NCBI GenBank assembly: GCA_031459385.1 | Contig: JAVKIP010000009.1 | Location: 32,001-96,000 of the forward strand | Direction: 5' to 3' | DNA length: 64,000 bases | Source: Candidatus Fervidifonticultor secundus | Lineage (GTDB): Bacteria > Sysuimicrobiota > Sysuimicrobiia > Sysuimicrobiales > Humicultoraceae | In this document: positions 22,406-26,536 of the stretch, piece after piece | Layout: each line of letters opens with the position of its first letter | Numbering within the stretch: the first letter of the stretch is position 1 | Notes under the pieces: generated by a model | The model's input: the letters and a program-made list of their open reading frames with translations, nothing else | Told to the model about the DNA's origin: nothing | Database searches by the model: none | Made by a program: the position numbers and the translations under genes

Positions 22406-23584
22406 GTGAGAGACCTCGCGATCCGTCCCACGGACTACTACCGGCTGGACGACGTGCTGACCGACGACGAGCGGCTCGTGCGCGACACGGTCCGCCGCTT
22501 CGTCGACCGCGAGGTGCTACCGCAGATCGGCGGCTGGTGGCTGCGCGGCGAGTTTCCCCGGCACCTGATCCCCGCGCTGGGCGAGCTGGGCGTGCTGGGC
22601 GCTAACCTGCCGGCCGACTACGGCGCCGCCGGCGTCAACAACGTCGCCTACGGCCTGATCCTCCAGGAACTGGAGCGCGGCGACTCGGGCCTGCGGTCCT
22701 TCGCCTCGGTGCAGGGGGCGCTGGTCATGTACCCCATCTACGTCTACGGGAGCGAGGAGCAGAAGCGGCACTGGCTGCCGCGGCTGGCCCGCGGCGAGGC
22801 GGTGGGCTGCTTCGGCCTCACCGAGCACTCGGCCGGCTCCGACCCGGCCGCCATGCAGATGCGCGCCCGGCGCCGCCCCGGCGGGTGGGAGCTCTCCGGC
22901 ACGAAGATGTGGATCACCAACGGCACCCTGGCCGATGTGGCGGTGATCTGGGCCAGGGACGACGAGGACGAGATCCGCGGCTTCCTGGTCGAGCGCGGGA
23001 CCCCGGGCTTCTCGGCCCACGAGGTGAAGACCAAGGCGAGCATGCGCGCCTCTGATACGGCCGAGCTGGTGCTGGACGGCGTGCGCGTGGGCGACGACGC
23101 GCTCCTGCCCGGGGTCCGCGGACTGCGCGGTCCGCTGGGCTGCCTGACGCAGGCGCGCTACGGCATCGCCTGGGGCGCCATCGGCGCCGCGGTCGCCTGC
23201 TTCGAGGAGGCCCTGGCCTACGCCAGGACCCGCGTCGCCTTCGGCAGGCCCATCGCGGCGCGGCAGCTGATCCAGGAGCGCCTGGTGGACATGCTCCAGG
23301 AGATCACGAAGGCCCAGTGGCTGGCCTACCGGCTGGGCCAGCTCAAGGATCAGGGGAAGATGCACTACACGCACGTCTCGCTGGCCAAGCGCAACAACGT
23401 GCGCGCCGCGCTGGAGATCGCCCGGGCCGCGCGGACGATCCTGGGCGCTTCCGGCATCACCCTCGAGTACCATGCCATGCGGCACGCGGCCAACCTGGAG
23501 ACGGTCGACACCTACGAAGGGACCTACGACATCCACACCCTGATTCTGGGCCGCGACATCACGGGGTTCGACGCGTTCGCCTGA
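22406..23584 (+). CDS. Acyl-CoA dehydrogenase, glutaryl-CoA dehydrogenase-like
   Basis: ELERGDSGLRSFASVQGAL, FGLTE..AGSDP, NLETVDTYEGTYDIH. Confidence 0.88.
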   Translation: MRDLAIRPTDYYRLDDVLTDDERLVRDTVRRFVDREVLPQIGGWWLRGEFPRHLIPALGELGVLGANLPADYGAAGVNNVAYGLILQELERGDSGLRSFASVQGALVMYPIYVYGSEEQKRHWLPRLARGEAVGCFGLTEHSAGSDPAAMQMRARRRPGGWELSGTKMWITNGTLADVAVIWARDDEDEIRGFLVERGTPGFSAHEVKTKASMRASDTAELVLDGVRVGDDALLPGVRGLRGPLGCLTQARYGIAWGAIGAAVACFEEALAYARTRVAFGRPIAARQLIQERLVDMLQEITKAQWLAYRLGQLKDQGKMHYTHVSLAKRNNVRAALEIARAARTILGASGITLEYHAMRHAANLETVDTYEGTYDIHTLILGRDITGFDAFA

Positions 23585-23598
23585 CGGAAGGCACCCGC

Positions 23599-24231
23599 TT
23601 ACCAGACCACCGGATGGCGGGCCGGCGTCGTCCGCTCGCGGGTCGGCAGCGCCTGTCCCGCATCGGGCACGCAGTCCTTGCCGGCGAACACCCCGACGCC
23701 CACCACCGCGTTGACCTGGGTGCGCCCGGTGGTCGTGCCCAACGTGGAGAACGAGACTGTCCACGCGGCACGCGGGCCGTCCTGGCTCACGGCGGCCGTC
23801 CCCACCACGAAGAAGGCTGCGTCGAAGACGTTGTAGGTCCCATTGGCGTTGCGCGTCGTGAGGTCGATGAAGCGCTCGTGGCCCTGGCCGCCGCCGCAGG
23901 GCGGCACGAAGCTCACGCCCGTCGCGCTGTTGAGGTCGGTGTTGAACCCGATGCCGCCGCTGAACTGCGTGGACGATGCCGACGTGCCGGGCGCAGGCAG
24001 TACCGGGTCGGGCTGTGTCCACAGGCGGACCTCGAGCGTCGAGGTCCCGCGCACGGTCCGCAGTTCCAGCACGTCGAACGTAGGTGCCGATCCTGCATCG
24101 CCCGCGGGATCGGCGGTGACGCTCACCCCGGGATCGATCGGCGTCTGGTTCAGGCCCTCCAGTTGTCCGCACGCCGCCACCACGACCACGACCGCCGCCA
24201 GGGCGACCATCTGCGCCAGTCGCATCCCCAT
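23599..24231 (-). CDS. Putative lipoprotein, unknown function
   Basis: Lipobox VVAAC after hydrophobic stretch; DPAGD repeat-like motif; beta-rich. Confidence 0.75.
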   Translation of the reverse strand: MGMRLAQMVALAAVVVVVAACGQLEGLNQTPIDPGVSVTADPAGDAGSAPTFDVLELRTVRGTSTLEVRLWTQPDPVLPAPGTSASSTQFSGGIGFNTDLNSATGVSFVPPCGGGQGHERFIDLTTRNANGTYNVFDAAFFVVGTAAVSQDGPRAAWTVSFSTLGTTTGRTQVNAVVGVGVFAGKDCVPDAGQALPTRERTTPARHPVVW

Positions 24232-24341
24232 CGCCTCACATTCGGCCCGGCACCGCCCGAAGCCCCTTGGTGCTGCCACGTATACGGATCGGCGGCGCAC
24301 GCGGTTCTACGAGGGGGACGGCAAAGACGCGTCGGGGCGGC

Positions 24342-24374
24342 AAAACGAAAAGGCGACGGGCACTCCCGCCGCCT
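24342..24374 (-). terminator. Intrinsic terminator downstream of the 14-aa peptide gene
   Basis: Minus strand AGGCGGCGGG-AGTG-CCCGTCGCCT followed by TTTCGTTTT. Confidence 0.85.
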
Positions 24375-24397
24375 CTTCGGGGGCAAGCGCCGTGCTG

Positions 24398-24442
24398 TTA
24401 CTTGCCCTTCTTCTTGGCGGCCTTCTTCGCCTTCTTCGCCAC
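24398..24442 (-). CDS. 14-aa Lys/Ala-rich basic peptide MAKKAKKAAKKKGK
   Basis: AAGGAGG SD 8 nt before GTG; all Lys codons AAG; TAA stop; own -10 and terminator. Confidence 0.7.
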   Translation of the reverse strand: MAKKAKKAAKKKGK

Positions 24443-24505
24443 CGTCCTCGCCTCCTTCTCCTGGAAGATGGACGGCAGACCCGTGCCGTCGGGTGTTCGT
24501 TCGCC

Positions 24506-24519
24506 ACTATATATAGAAT
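24506..24519. promoter_or_regulatory. Back-to-back -10 elements (TATAGT minus, TAGAAT plus)
   Basis: AT-rich ACTATATATAGAAT patch between divergent genes. Confidence 0.55.
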
Positions 24520-24604
24520 CTCCTGCTCCCTCGGACACAATTTCTTGGCATCGCCTCGCAGGGCGCTGCAGGACCCGACTGCGGGGGTGGCCGAATTCCT
24601 CCGC

Positions 24605-26536
24605 GTGAGGCAGCCGGCGCCACGAACGCTCCTGCGCACCGTGCTCCTGGCGGCGGTCGCGGTCATGGCCGCCGCCTCGGGGGCGACAGCCCAGGCGACC
24701 GCCACGGACTTGGGCGGGCACTGGGCCGCGGCCCGGATCGCCGACCTCGTGCGCCGCGGCGTGGTCGCCCTCGACCCGAACCGCCGCTTCTATCCCGACC
24801 GTCCCCTGGCCCGCGCCCAGTACATCACGTGGCTCGCGGCCGCGCGCGGTCTGTCGTCGCTGCGTGTCGAGATGCCGAGCTTCGCCGACGTGCCGCCGGA
24901 GCACCAGGCCGCGGCGGCGATTGAGAGCGCGGTGGCGGTGGGCATCGTACCGCCCGGCGGCCTGTTCCGCCCCGGCGAGGCCATCACGCGCGCCGAGGCC
25001 ATCGTCTTCCTCGTCCGCGCCCTCGGCCACACGTTCGAGGCTGCCTACATGGTCAACGCGCCGCTGCCCTATGCCGACGTCGACCACCTGGAGCCGACGG
25101 TGCGCGGTGCCATCGCGGTTGCCGCGCTGAGCGAGCCGCCGTTGTTGCGCGAGCCGCCCGCCGACCGCCTGCGGCCCGCGGAGGCCGCCACACGCGCGGA
25201 GGCCGCCAGCCTGCTCTGGGCTTACCTGCAGGCCGTCGAACGCGGCGCGCGCCTCCGCTTCAGCACCACCCTGGGCCAGGGCGTGACGCTCATCCTCGAG
25301 AAGCGGGGGGCGCTGCGCATCACCCCGACCTGGCGCGTCCAGGTGGGGGCGTTCCTGGAGGAAGACCGGGCCCGCCGGCTGGCCGCGGCGATGCGCGCGC
25401 GGGGGTATGCGACCGACGTGGAGGCGGTCGACGAGGTCTTCCGGGTGCGCGTCGGGCAGTTTCGCACCCGCGAGGACGCCGAGACGTTCCGCCTGCGCCT
25501 GGGGCCTGAGGCCGCCTCGGCGCAGGTGATCCTCACGGTGCAGGACTACGACGCGCTCTCCGGTCCTTTCTGGACCGGCATGCTCCTGGTAGAAGCGGCC
25601 AGCGGCGTCCGGCTCCGGCCCGCCCTGGCGCTGGAGACCGGCGTGGGGCGCGGTCGCGTGAGCGAGGCGGCCCGGCGGGCCGGCGCGCTGGCGGCGGTCA
25701 ACGGCGGCTTCTTCCACGCCGCCACCGGCGACCCGCTGGGCTGCCTGGTCATCGACGGGGAGGTCGTGAGCGAGCCCATCCTGGGCCGCACCTGCGCGGG
25801 GATCACCAACGACGGCCAAGTGCTCTTCGACACCATGCGGTTCGACGCCGGCGTGGAGGTCAACGGTACGCGCCTGCCGGTCAACGGCGTGAACCGGGCC
25901 CGGGGTGCCGATGAACTGATCATCTACCGTCCGGCCTTTGGCCCGTCCACGCGCACGAATGCGTTCGGCACCGAGGTCGCCGTCGTGGGCGGCGTGGTCG
26001 AGCAGGTGGTCGACGGCCGGGGAAACACCGCGATACCCGCCGACGGCTTCGTGCTGTCCGCGCACGGCCGCACGCGTCCGGCGCTGACGGCGCTGCGGCC
26101 GGGCGACCGCGTGACGGCGTGGATGCGCTTGGTGCCGGTCTCCGGCGACCCCAGATGGGAGGACGTGCGGCACATTATCGGCGGCGGGCCGCGGTTGCTG
26201 GCCGACGGGCAGTACATCGGGGGCGAGGGCTTCCGGCCGTCGTTCACCGACCGCCGGCACCCGCGCACCGCGATCGGCCGCCTCGAGGACGGCCGGACGC
26301 TGCTGGTCGTGGTCGGCGGCCGGCAGCCCTATCACAGTCTGGGCATGACGCTCCCGGAGCTGGCGGCCGTCCTGCGCCTGCTGGGCGTCACCGATGCTCT
26401 GAACCTGGACGGCGGAGGCTCCACCACCCTGGTCGTGCGCGGCGTGGTCGTCAACCTGCCGTCGGACGAGACGGGCGAGCGGCCGGTGGGCGACGTGCTG
26501 CTGGTGATGCCGCCGGCCACGCAGGAACAGCCCTGA
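24605..26536 (+). CDS. Secreted SLH + SPOR + phosphodiester glycosidase (NAGPA) protein
   Basis: Signal peptide; SLH DLGGHWA..FRPGEAITRAE; SPOR WRVQVGAF; NAGPA AAVNGGFF, HPRTAIG, ALNLDGGGSTT. Confidence 0.85.
   Translation: MRQPAPRTLLRTVLLAAVAVMAAASGATAQATATDLGGHWAAARIADLVRRGVVALDPNRRFYPDRPLARAQYITWLAAARGLSSLRVEMPSFADVPPEHQAAAAIESAVAVGIVPPGGLFRPGEAITRAEAIVFLVRALGHTFEAAYMVNAPLPYADVDHLEPTVRGAIAVAALSEPPLLREPPADRLRPAEAATRAEAASLLWAYLQAVERGARLRFSTTLGQGVTLILEKRGALRITPTWRVQVGAFLEEDRARRLAAAMRARGYATDVEAVDEVFRVRVGQFRTREDAETFRLRLGPEAASAQVILTVQDYDALSGPFWTGMLLVEAASGVRLRPALALETGVGRGRVSEAARRAGALAAVNGGFFHAATGDPLGCLVIDGEVVSEPILGRTCAGITNDGQVLFDTMRFDAGVEVNGTRLPVNGVNRARGADELIIYRPAFGPSTRTNAFGTEVAVVGGVVEQVVDGRGNTAIPADGFVLSAHGRTRPALTALRPGDRVTAWMRLVPVSGDPRWEDVRHIIGGGPRLLADGQYIGGEGFRPSFTDRRHPRTAIGRLEDGRTLLVVVGGRQPYHSLGMTLPELAAVLRLLGVTDALNLDGGGSTTLVVRGVVVNLPSDETGERPVGDVLLVMPPATQEQP

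Follow-up and report, generated by a model that had tools for sequence, protein, structure and literature searches.

A duplicated, stand-alone micro-gene for a 14-residue lysine/alanine peptide in the candidate phylum CSP1-3/Sysuimicrobiota, possibly a free histone-H1-tail-like polycation

Results

Features of the locus

The window, i.e. the whole stretch of 64,000 nucleotides that was analysed, carries a very short open reading frame (ORF) on its minus strand. The features of this locus are given below in the direction of transcription.

24501 to 24547, minus strand: candidate promoter block, with TTGTGT at 24540-24535, an AGGAG-rich middle, T.T.GT at 24511-24506 and then G(G/T)(A/G)GCGAAC
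24471 to 24490, minus strand: 5' hairpin GACGGCA / loop / TGCCGTC, with an invariant stem and a loop that varies in sequence and length in relatives
24439 to 24478, minus strand: predicted alternative long hairpin that would bury the Shine-Dalgarno sequence (SD) and the GUG start (energy folding, RNAalifold)
24451 to 24457, minus strand: SD AAGGAGG, 8 nt upstream of the start, GGAGG invariant in 27 of 27 aligned sequences
24398 to 24442, minus strand: micro-ORF (type-1 paralogue), GTG, 13 further codons and TAA, encoding MAKKAKKAAKKKGK, the peptide being identical in 19 distinct alleles
24381 to 24407, minus strand: hairpin spanning the stop codon, GGGCAAG (24407-24401) with CTTGCCC (24387-24381)
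24342 to 24378, minus strand: intrinsic terminator with a 14-bp stem, an AGUG loop and a U-run

A first-pass annotation, made from the letters of the DNA, had described this site as a stand-alone transcription unit for an ultra-basic peptide. Four features escaped it: the second gene copy elsewhere in the genome, the predicted alternative fold around SD and start, the hairpin that spans the stop codon, and a co-oriented 233-aa ORF located downstream. All of the elements that it named were found on the minus strand where it had placed them, and the comparisons below indicate that the ORF at 24442-24398 is a real gene. Translation would start at the GTG at 24442 and proceed through 14 codons encoding MAKKAKKAAKKKGK, in which all eight Lys codons are AAG, to the TAA at 24400-24398. 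Lys makes up 8 of the 14 residues (57%) and Arg 0%. As removal of the Met is expected, the mature product would be AKKAKKAAKKKGK (13 residues), with a calculated monoisotopic mass of 1383.94 Da and a pI of approx. 10.9.

The genome comprises 3,301,802 bases with 71.9% GC, and in its approximate proteome Lys accounts for 1.36% of the residues vs. 10.53% for Arg. Among all ORFs of 8-46 codons in the whole genome only two contained at least 35% Lys; both encode MAKKAKKAAKKKGK and both have a strong SD. The second copy (G000:C57:124426-124470) specifies the identical peptide, starting with ATG instead of GTG and using other synonymous codons. When open stretches in all six frames were collected in which some run of 12 residues contained 5 Lys or more, five were found genome-wide; the two gene copies reached 8 Lys each and the other three 5. 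A chance ORF was rejected as an explanation on the grounds of this outlier position, the pattern matches in relatives and the empty reversed control described below.

Conservation of the peptide in the phylum

We scanned 94 genomes of the phylum CSP1-3/Sysuimicrobiota for the pattern of the gene and obtained 52 matches in 41 genomes, 11 of which contained two; the reversed pattern gave 0 matches in the same 94 genomes. The matches resolved into two ancient syntenic paralogues, type 1 (the window copy) and type 2. The type-2 unit differs in its leader and ends in a terminator of its own; ORF and SD are kept and the type-1 untranslated region (UTR) is absent.

Within the family, DNA identity was 77-91% across approx. 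200 nt. Among 19 distinct type-1 orthologous alleles we found six variable sites in the ORF, each of them a synonymous change in the third codon position, the exchange of TAA and TAG included. Since all variation in the ORF was synonymous and all length changes were in frame, the peptide itself is under selection. The search for a conserved SD-ORF-terminator arrangement with synonymous variation and length variants, which the first-pass annotation had suggested, was thus positive in relatives. These comparisons taken together lead us to conclude that the micro-gene is real, stand-alone, duplicated and phylum-wide, and that its coding sequence is under purifying selection.

At the same syntenic sites positional orthologues ranged from 10 (MAKKKAKKKK) to 29 residues, Lys/Ala-rich throughout. 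Forms of 27-29 residues with AKKT/AAKK repeats lie at the orthologous type-2 site, and in the family f5 the longer form was present in 10 of 12 genomes. The repeats read AKKA/AAKK in the window peptide and AKKT/SAKK in the f5 orthologues. To judge from this pattern, selection acts on composition and not on sequence, as in low-complexity polycations such as H1 tails. The family f4 had a pattern match in only 1 of 23 genomes, and in five f4 genomes no Lys-rich micro-ORF was found within approx. 1.5 kb of the type-2 marker gene, so that the peptide is dispensable for some members of the phylum.

Similar micro-ORFs of 9-19 residues were also detected on metagenome contigs, with flanks of at least 55% GC in 40 of 66 cases; the metagenome scan supports the existence of a wider class of such micro-ORFs only in part. 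Sediment, soil, mat and rhizosphere runs gave small word shares, which were uninformative on habitat.

Gene neighbourhood

Type-1 genes were found in 27 distinct contexts. A NAGPA/SLH/SPOR gene was present in 23 of these, always divergent upstream, and an acyl-CoA dehydrogenase gene likewise in 23, always convergent downstream. An extra co-oriented ORF lies downstream in 4 of the 27 contexts; in the window genome it is a 233-aa ORF at 24300-23599. After the type-2 gene, a convergent MlaD gene was found in 7 of the 10 distinct contexts listed, with no MlaD match at the other three. The divergent and convergent neighbours bear out the earlier description of a stand-alone unit for a conserved ultra-basic peptide. 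Protein identities of the type-1 neighbours were 49-64% and 77-94%, compared with 100% for the peptide in the 19 alleles. The nature of the neighbours (cell-envelope glycosidase, acyl-CoA dehydrogenase, beta-eliminating lyase, MlaD) gave no clue to function.

Upstream block and 5' UTR

The candidate promoter block was conserved in 12 of 12 aligned family loci and was recognisable in a second family (L078). The first-pass annotation had read TATAGT at 24511-24506 as a -10 element. Positions 1, 3, 5 and 6 of this hexamer (T.T.GT) are kept in relatives; the key second-position A, however, is not conserved, so that the assignment stands only in part. A simple consensus scan of 23000-26000 called no sigma-70 promoter. 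An upstream ORF suggested by AAGGAG/ATG in some relatives was considered and rejected, as the ATG is not conserved.

The hairpin GACGGCA/TGCCGTC at 24490-24471 and the strong SD AAGGAGG at 24457-24451 were both present as first described. Folded alone, the 5' hairpin has an energy of -11.7 kcal/mol; when the full transcript is folded at 70 C, the structure of minimum energy also has this hairpin at its 5' end. It would compete with the alternative hairpin, which prevails in the minimum-energy structures predicted for 37 and 55 C. In this alternative CUGCCGUCC (24478-24470) is predicted to pair with GGACGGUGG (24447-24439, with the GUG start inside), and CUUCC within CAUCUUCC (24470-24463) with the GGAGG of the SD. 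The predicted probability that the SD is unpaired was 0.18 at 37 C, 0.21 at 55 C and 0.31-0.32 at 70 C, i.e. a modest opening. Since one of the two competing hairpins would bury the SD and the start codon, translation of type 1 is probably gated.

RNAalifold returned the same SD-sequestering helices. Variation in them was one-sided, UA to UG in six and CG to UG in three sequences, and no double compensatory change was found in the SD-sequestering helix in this alignment. The sequence of the alternative hairpin, CAUCUUCC included, was invariant across the 19 alleles that encode 14 residues. Before the start codon 43 of 66 positions were invariant in these alleles, and the invariant block, which reaches from the 3' arm of the 5' hairpin almost to the start codon, is conserved beyond the level of the flanking protein genes. 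The fold of the full transcript had a z of -4.1 vs. shuffles. The complete invariance of the type-1 peptide in the family, together with the near-invariant UTR, points to a constraint at the RNA level that a generic polycation would not need.

Stop-codon hairpin, terminator and transcript

The hairpin that spans the stop codon corresponds to an RNAalifold helix (columns 161-165/180-184) in which CG is replaced by AU on both sides in four sequences; members of the G014 group have another pair, GAAGAAGGG/CCCTTCTTC, in its place. Downstream, the stem-loop and T-run at 24378-24342 had been read as an intrinsic terminator, and this was corroborated by compensatory changes and by an Rfam match. Across the alignment 12 of 29 predicted pairs were preserved through two-sided changes, most of them in the terminator stem. 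The Rfam match was to the CsrC terminator stem-loop, with an E of 0.0033, below the gathering threshold; at E up to 10 Rfam returned this terminator-like fragment and otherwise chance matches only. A simple consensus scan of 23000-26000 did not call any terminator, probably because the stem absorbs part of the T-run.

A metatranscriptome contig of a close relative (approx. 93% identical) extends across the ORF and stops 2 nt past 24491, close to where the RNA would be expected to start. This one assembled contig comes from an RNA library, in which DNA carry-over is possible, and gives a weak hint of transcription. In run X15 stretches with no RNA cover are evidence neither for nor against expression. 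The marine/seawater RNA runs X16 and X19 were set aside as not concerning this gene; they contained only Lys-codon stretches of 35-55 nt in unrelated contigs.

Database and literature searches

The relatives of 20, 27 and 29 residues were used as queries. In Pfam no family matched at E up to 10, and NCBIfam gave only a chance match with an E of 3.4. A PDB sequence search with the 20-29-residue relatives gave 0 matches, and an exact look-up among approx. 15 billion proteins found none of the three. The peptide strings occurred in 0 papers. In the literature on small proteins, polylysine and H1-like proteins no such genes were found, though supplements may list such ORFs; in the paper on sORFdb (PMC11796252) the word 'lysine' has 0 occurrences.

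Discussion

Proposed role of the peptide

From the features described above we infer translation in vivo, a binding partner and a regulatory switch. In the reading that we favour, and which we hold with about even confidence, translation of the gene yields a free oligocation, similar to a histone-H1 tail, which has nucleic acids or other polyanions as its binding partners, and RNA structure controls one of the paralogues. As a Lys/Ala peptide that is not attached to a larger protein, the product would amount to an isolated H1-tail-like segment, and it would bind polyanions by charge, without sequence specificity. DNA in the nucleoid would be the most likely partner; RNA, ribosomes or polyphosphate are possible ones. 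Upon binding, the phosphate charge would be neutralised and the polyanion stabilised or compacted. In the type-1 leader the 5'-terminal hairpin would compete with the longer hairpin that buries SD and GUG, and translation would probably be gated either by temperature or by the peptide itself, which as a duplex-stabilising agent could act in feedback.

Among the functions that the first-pass annotation offered, the one resembling a histone-H1 tail fits the evolutionary pattern best, as composition is kept and length is free. Its description of the peptide as a genetically encoded polyamine substitute did not hold. We found five matches to the spermidine-synthase family and one AdoMet decarboxylase in the genome, and polyamine replacement was rejected with these synthesis genes present. 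Besides them, HU was represented by two matches; that the genome already has HU and the polyamine genes speaks against the reading that we favour.

Alternative explanations

Another possibility is a ribosome-bound micro-protein that sits in a defined pocket or bridge of the rRNA, as do eL41, bS22, bL37 or bTHX, and that would be a lineage-specific ribosomal protein or a hibernation factor. The tiny and highly basic product, the strong translation signals and the wide occurrence of the peptide in the phylum all agree with it, and conserved structured leaders are common in autoregulated mRNAs of ribosomal proteins. The share of basic residues, 57%, also lies inside the 55-65% that PMC10085706 reports for bS22 and eL41. 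Positional orthologues of 10-29 residues would, however, fit a fixed rRNA pocket poorly, and Arg is absent from the peptide, as are hydrophobic or aromatic residues other than Ala and Met. Two copies per genome and a pattern match in only 1 of 23 f4 genomes are further points against a ribosomal protein, and the 20-29-residue relatives match no ribosomal family in Pfam or NCBIfam. We consider this explanation unlikely; the earlier comparison to eL41/bTHX is weakened by the variation in length, by the lack of Arg and by the fact that one family of the phylum almost lacks the peptide. Similarly improbable in our view is a dual-function or mainly regulatory sRNA, in which the type-1 transcript of approx. 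155 nt would base-pair via the CU-rich CAUCUUCC and translation of the Lys-rich ORF would modulate the RNA or add a product. Such an RNA would account for the 5' hairpin, the single-stranded CU-rich stretch with complementarity to GGAGG-type ribosome-binding sites and the intrinsic terminator, as well as for the invariant positions before the start and the low z of the full-transcript fold. Yet the type-2 paralogue keeps ORF, SD and terminator and not the type-1 UTR, and the synonymous-only variation of the ORF with its frame-keeping length changes indicates selection on the peptide. The CU-rich stretch moreover has a predicted partner in cis, its own SD, and Rfam offered no family besides the terminator.

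The run of one codon in a short ORF followed by a terminator also calls to mind a lysine-sensing leader peptide, in which stalling at the eight AAG codons would govern termination, and through it either a gene that lies downstream or antisense transcription running on into the convergent gene. Lys codons are rare (1.36%), so such an ORF would be sensitive to the supply of Lys-tRNA, and the window genome does contain the co-oriented 233-aa ORF. Against this, the acyl-CoA dehydrogenase gene downstream is convergent in 23 of 27 type-1 contexts, a co-oriented ORF being found in 4, and type 2 is followed by the convergent MlaD. The RNAalifold consensus contains no conserved antiterminator, while the loop and flanks of the terminator vary; in the window genome the sole candidate antiterminator pairing uses this loop, which is not conserved. 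Approx. 20 nt separate the stop codon from the start of the terminator, a distance that a terminating ribosome would barely cover or just fail to cover, and the neighbours are not related to lysine. The first-pass annotation had argued against lysine attenuation, which the divergent upstream and convergent downstream neighbours in 23 of 27 distinct type-1 contexts confirm. As judged from gene order, a lysine attenuator is largely refuted by synteny, and we regard it as the least probable of the explanations considered. Hardly more probable is an exported cationic antimicrobial or signalling peptide. The peptide is short and polycationic, and free bS22 and bL37 were antimicrobially active according to PMC10085706; but it has neither a signal or leader sequence nor a hydrophobic face, and genes for transport, immunity or modification are absent beside both copies.

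Implications

Genes of this length fall below the cut-off of every gene caller, so that a whole layer of cell chemistry could be invisible. The present case is unusually clean. A genome that nearly avoids lysine keeps two separately regulated genes for Lys/Ala-only products, and both copies are conserved across a candidate phylum, more so than the adjoining enzymes. Should the product be a free nucleic-acid-binding polycation as we favour, the lower size limit known for nucleoid- or RNA-associated proteins would fall to about a dozen residues, and protein-based (H1-tail) and small-molecule (polyamine) charge neutralisation would be linked. A further-reaching and speculative idea, which we think possible but doubtful, is that ribosomally made oligolysines of 10-30 residues represent a widespread and unannotated class among the smallest stand-alone bacterial genes, serving as genetically encoded, dosage-tunable intracellular 'peptide polyamines' for DNA, RNA or polyphosphate. 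The type-1 mRNA of this phylum would then be a sensor: heat would open the helix that sequesters SD and start, and the duplex-stabilising peptide would close it, giving a homeostatic control of the polycation level in the cell.

Comparison with known systems

In attenuators of the trpL/hisL type a leader peptide rich in one codon is followed by an intrinsic terminator. The 14-codon ORF rich in one codon, with its terminator, is alike in this respect; it differs in lacking both a regulated operon downstream and a conserved antiterminator, and the composition of the peptide is retained where the neighbours are convergent. PMC5521070 surveys the class of dual-function sRNAs, which have a small peptide as an additional product. 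The predicted transcript of approx. 155 nt shares with them the 5' hairpin, the conserved unpaired CU-rich stretch, the short ORF and the terminator, and differs in that a paralogue keeps the ORF without the conserved leader.

The ribosomal proteins bS22 (33 aa), bL37 and eL41 are characterised, in PMC10085706, as very short, 55-65% basic and missed or called 'hypothetical' in annotation. The present peptide is likewise a very short, strongly basic stand-alone product that was overlooked by annotation. Those proteins have a fixed length, a conserved sequence and defined rRNA pockets, whereas here the length varies between 10 and 29 residues, the composition is restricted to Lys/Ala without Arg, each genome has two copies, and the 20-29-residue relatives match none of the family models.

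Bacterial H1-like proteins bear on the reading that we favour. In the chlamydial Hc2, lysine-rich pentamers account for lengths between 165 and 237 aa (PMC2848022), and the Pseudomonas AlgP, H1-like as well, is tied to polyphosphate granules (PMC9239181). Common to them and to the present peptides are low-complexity Lys/Ala(/Thr) repeats whose number is freely variable. The peptides described here are at least 10 times shorter, with no globular or other domain and no Pfam match. They differ also in their genetic arrangement, being encoded in separate promoter-to-terminator units (the promoter as a candidate), one copy of which carries a structured, near-invariant leader.

Identification of a lysine-rich micro-gene

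On the minus strand the elements that the first-pass annotation had assembled into a stand-alone gene for an ultra-basic peptide (TATAGT, 5' hairpin, SD, GTG ORF and terminator) were all found in place. All were seen in the sequence; the terminator was also indicated by an Rfam match and covariation.

24511-24506, minus: TATAGT
24490-24471, minus: 5' hairpin GACGGCA-CGGGTC-TGCCGTC
24457-24451, minus: SD AAGGAGG, 8 nt ahead of the start codon
24442-24398, minus: micro-ORF, GTG at 24442, 14 codons encoding MAKKAKKAAKKKGK, TAA at 24400-24398
24378-24342, minus: terminator with 14-bp stem, AGUG loop and U-run

Simple scans called neither a sigma-70 promoter (consensus scan) nor a terminator at the micro-gene, the terminator at 24342-24378 probably being missed because its stem pairs into the T-run and so escapes the rule of the scan. 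Its stem-loop matched the terminator part of CsrC in Rfam (E 0.0033, far below gathering), besides which the Rfam search of the micro-gene gave no match of note. The 171-nt micro-gene stretch folded better than 200 out of 200 shuffles (z = -4.1).

The genome assembly (3,301,802 bases) has a GC content of 71.9%. In an approximate proteome of 1,395 long high-GC3 ORFs, Lys accounted for 1.36% and Arg for 10.53% of residues, with 8257 AAG codons vs 845 AAA. The micro-peptide is 57% Lys and contains no Arg, and each of its 8 Lys codons is AAG. Such a peptide in a Lys-poor proteome therefore reflects selection for lysine itself, against the compositional drift of the genome. Across the whole genome just two ORFs between 8 and 46 codons long had a Lys content of 35% or more. 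Both are preceded by a strong SD and encode the same 14-mer; the second lies at G000:C57:124426-124470. The six-frame translation contained only 5 open stretches with at least 5 Lys in any 12 residues, the two 14-mer copies reaching 8 per 12. A chance ORF was ruled out by these two counts. No Lys-rich tail was found on any other protein of the genome in the six-frame scan.

Conservation and coding selection

With a 321-nt query, matches of 77-91% identity over ~200 nt were obtained in 24 of 41 related genomes (23 of 40 without the unpublished genome G019); the matched stretch runs from the upstream block through leader and ORF to the terminator. The peptide was identical in all 12 loci of a first alignment. 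A larger alignment comprised 27 distinct sequences of type 1, the lineage of the window copy, without G019. The 14-residue ORF was present in 19 of them. Variation among these alleles was confined to 6 sites of the ORF, each a third codon position with a synonymous change, TAA/TAG among them. Without codon constraint, six third-position changes out of six would have a chance of about (1/3)^6. The conserved SD-ORF-terminator unit with synonymous variation, which the first-pass annotation had proposed to look for in relatives, was thus present. The second copy in the genome, which has its own SD, 5' hairpin and terminator, differs from the window copy by ATG for GTG, GCC for GCG, GCG for GCC and TAG for TAA. 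Judged from its sequence, the micro-ORF is a coding gene.

Gene contexts of two paralogue lineages

The second copy represents another ancient lineage, type 2.

Start codons and neighbouring genes (Pfam) of the two lineages.
Start: type 1, GTG; type 2, ATG in the window genome and its genus, GTG in some relatives
Upstream neighbour: type 1, SLH/SPOR/NAGPA phosphodiester-glycosidase gene, divergent; type 2, beta-eliminating-lyase (threonine-aldolase-like) gene, same strand
Downstream neighbour: type 1, acyl-CoA dehydrogenase gene, convergent; type 2, MlaD-domain gene, convergent

The glycosidase and the dehydrogenase each occurred in 23 of the 27 distinct type-1 contexts, and wherever present they lay on the strand opposite to the micro-gene. 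In other genera the identity of the neighbour proteins was 49-64% (glycosidase) and 77-94% (dehydrogenase), and the micro-peptide was unchanged. The Pfam assignments of the type-1 and type-2 neighbours gave no clue to micro-gene function. In the window the divergent neighbour (24632-26533, plus strand) combines SLH, SPOR and NAGPA domains, an envelope-anchored enzyme architecture.

Four of the 27 contexts, the window among them, contain an extra co-oriented ORF of 190-233 aa between micro-gene and dehydrogenase, without a Pfam match. The ORF in the window (23599-24300, minus strand, 233 aa) has a hydrophobic, lipoprotein-like N-terminus. Its homologues (56-64% identity) fill the same slot in few relatives only (L012/L018, L027/L054, L066), which suggests that the ORF was inserted into a conserved gene order.

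Distribution and length variants

The exact back-translated pattern, searched across 185,579 species with a single genome for each, gave 16 stretches, with the record titles Candidatus Fervidifonticultor (5), Armatimonadota bacterium (4), Candidatus Nitrosymbiomonas (1) and bacterium MAGs (6). The only paper found with the name Fervidifonticultor, PMC11604079, describes the phylum CSP1-3 as Sysuimicrobiota. Of the 94 genomes of this phylum, which make up a single order, 41 had a match to a looser pattern (SD, M-A-K-K, 1-11 codons, K-K-x-K/R, stop); 52 matches were listed, and 11 genomes had two. The reversed pattern had no match in the same 94 genomes. By family, the looser pattern matched 26/33 genomes of f1 (25/32 without G019), 13/22 of f2, 1/23 of f4 and 0/12 of f5. 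Ten of the 12 f5 genomes, and none outside f5, matched a second pattern designed for longer forms. The tallies of both patterns, like that of the 321-nt query, take in G019, and "not found" refers to these patterns; with them, no Lys-rich micro-ORF was found in the ~1.5 kb around the type-2 marker gene in five f4 genomes.

Shorter variants read from the loci included MAKKKAKKKK, MAKKKAAKKKKGK, MAKKKKAGKKKK, MAKKATKKKAGGKKKGR and MAKKAAKKATKAKGKKKKGR; the long variants, of 27-29 residues, were MAAKRKKAAAKKTSAKKTAKKTAKKKR and MAAKKAAKKATAKKTSAKKTAKKAARKKR. The f5 forms of 27 and 29 residues lie at the type-2 site, adjoining MlaD in L034 and the lyase in L036. The length variants anticipated by the first-pass annotation therefore span 10 to 29 residues among positional orthologues, with composition alone kept.

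The looser pattern also gave at least 119 stretches on metagenome contigs. Among 80 loci with DNA there were 66 in-frame Lys-rich ORFs of 9-19 residues, some of recurrent form, e.g. MAKKKAAKKKKK. The flanks of the loci had a GC content of 0.24-0.72, and 40 of the 66 ORFs had flanks of at least 0.55, where chance is a very unlikely origin. Those in AT-rich contigs may be due to chance, and some matches may belong to Sysuimicrobiota. One contig (L160, Ga0187765_10012642; flanks 68-69% GC) carries two tandem 11-codon MAKKKAAKKKK micro-ORFs on the same strand (401-452 and 512-563), 60 nt apart and each with its own GGAGG.

Structure of the type-1 RNA

RNAalifold predicted 29 pairs for the 27-sequence alignment, of which 12 keep pairing through changes on both sides, mostly in the terminator stem. 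A further hairpin spans the stop codon, where the last ORF codons GGGCAAG pair with CTTGCCC; CG is replaced by AU on both sides in 4 sequences, and the G014 group has a different pair, GAAGAAGGG/CCCTTCTTC, at this position.

The leader was nearly invariant in the 19 alleles (43 of 66 positions ahead of the start identical). Among these is a nearly continuous run of positions between the 5' hairpin, whose 3' arm it includes, and the start codon. Two competing predicted folds claim CCGUCC. One is the 5' hairpin, in which it pairs with GACGGCA (-11.7 kcal/mol). In the other, a longer hairpin, CUGCCGUCC is base-paired to GGACGGUGG, which contains the GUG start codon, and CUUCC to the GGAGG of the SD. 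At 37 and 55 C this longer hairpin had the lowest predicted energy; the full transcript was predicted to adopt the 5' hairpin instead at 70 C, leaving the SD unpaired. The predicted probability of an unpaired SD was 0.18, 0.21 and 0.31-0.32 at 37, 55 and 70 C. Changes in the longer hairpin were UA to UG in 6 sequences and CG to UG in 3. That the leader acts as a switch burying SD and start is plausible, the support being the energy model and one-sided changes only. Measured between the conserved block and the start codon, two leaders are 26-38 nt longer than the 66 nt of the main group (L032 of G003, 92 nt; L078 of G025, 104 nt), and the added stretch of L032 contains an extra GACGG copy, so the 5' structure appears elaborated in some genera.

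The upstream block TTGTGT ... AGGAG ... T.T.GT-GGCGAAC, which misfits sigma-70, is kept even in family f2 (L078). L059-L062 (G014, G020, G044, G004) carry two tandem copies of it (TCTGGTGGCGAAC ... TCTGGTAGCGAAC) some 60-110 nt ahead of the micro-ORF, which points to a pair of promoters or to a protein-binding site that is repeated.

Sequencing runs

The best matches to the stretch among sequencing runs were three hot-spring DNA runs of one study, one of which may be the sample of origin. An RNA library of the same study contained a 780-nt contig of a close relative that covers 24380-24491 with 8 differences over 112 nt. At one side this contig ends 2 nt beyond 24491, near the expected RNA start; at the other it extends beyond the terminator into flanking sequence of the relative. 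A variant with a 3-nt deletion was present on a second contig. We take this as a weak hint of transcription, because the contigs show neither strand, ends nor level and RNA libraries can hold DNA. Marine RNA matches were rejected as unrelated Lys-codon tracts.

Putative function of the micro-peptide

The peptides combine a strict Lys/Ala composition with free length, a basic C-terminus, Ala 3-4 residues apart and absence of Arg though the proteome is Arg-rich. Histone-H1-type tails show this same pattern, and Lys/Ala tails of this type bind DNA by charge. Such a pattern is unsuited to a fixed pocket, which favours a free oligocation that would bind polyanions by charge; we give this class of mechanism about an even chance. 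DNA would be the most likely partner, and RNA, ribosomes or polyphosphate may be others; the H1-like protein AlgP is reported to be linked with polyphosphate granules (PMC9239181). The H1-tail-like reading of the first-pass annotation fits in composition and length, and its "polyamine substitute" does not hold: the genome has 5 spermidine-synthase-family matches and one AdoMet decarboxylase. As it also has two HU genes, we rejected the micro-peptide as a replacement for polyamines or HU.

A ribosomal micro-protein would be expected neither to vary in length nor to be nearly absent from f4, and the peptide lacks Arg; we consider this reading unlikely. The invariant type-1 leader would suit a dual-function or regulatory RNA, also improbable, which leaves both type 2 and the purely synonymous ORF variation unexplained. 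Lysine attenuation had already been doubted, and the convergent dehydrogenase in most type-1 contexts leaves no downstream operon to be controlled; as read from the gene order, this arrangement excludes such control, and an attenuator is extremely improbable. An exported peptide seems very improbable.

Relation to known families

Family, PDB and cluster searches need at least 20 residues, more than the 14-mer offers; longer relatives were used as queries. These 20-29-residue relatives had no match in Pfam or the PDB, a chance match only in NCBIfam, and were absent from a 15-billion-protein collection. Literature searches by peptide strings and topic, in texts outside supplements, found no paper on such genes. 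The micro-gene family is real, strongly conserved, duplicated and unannotated. What is new about it is a minimal form of the known "tiny polybasic proteins" and "H1-like lysine-rich proteins".
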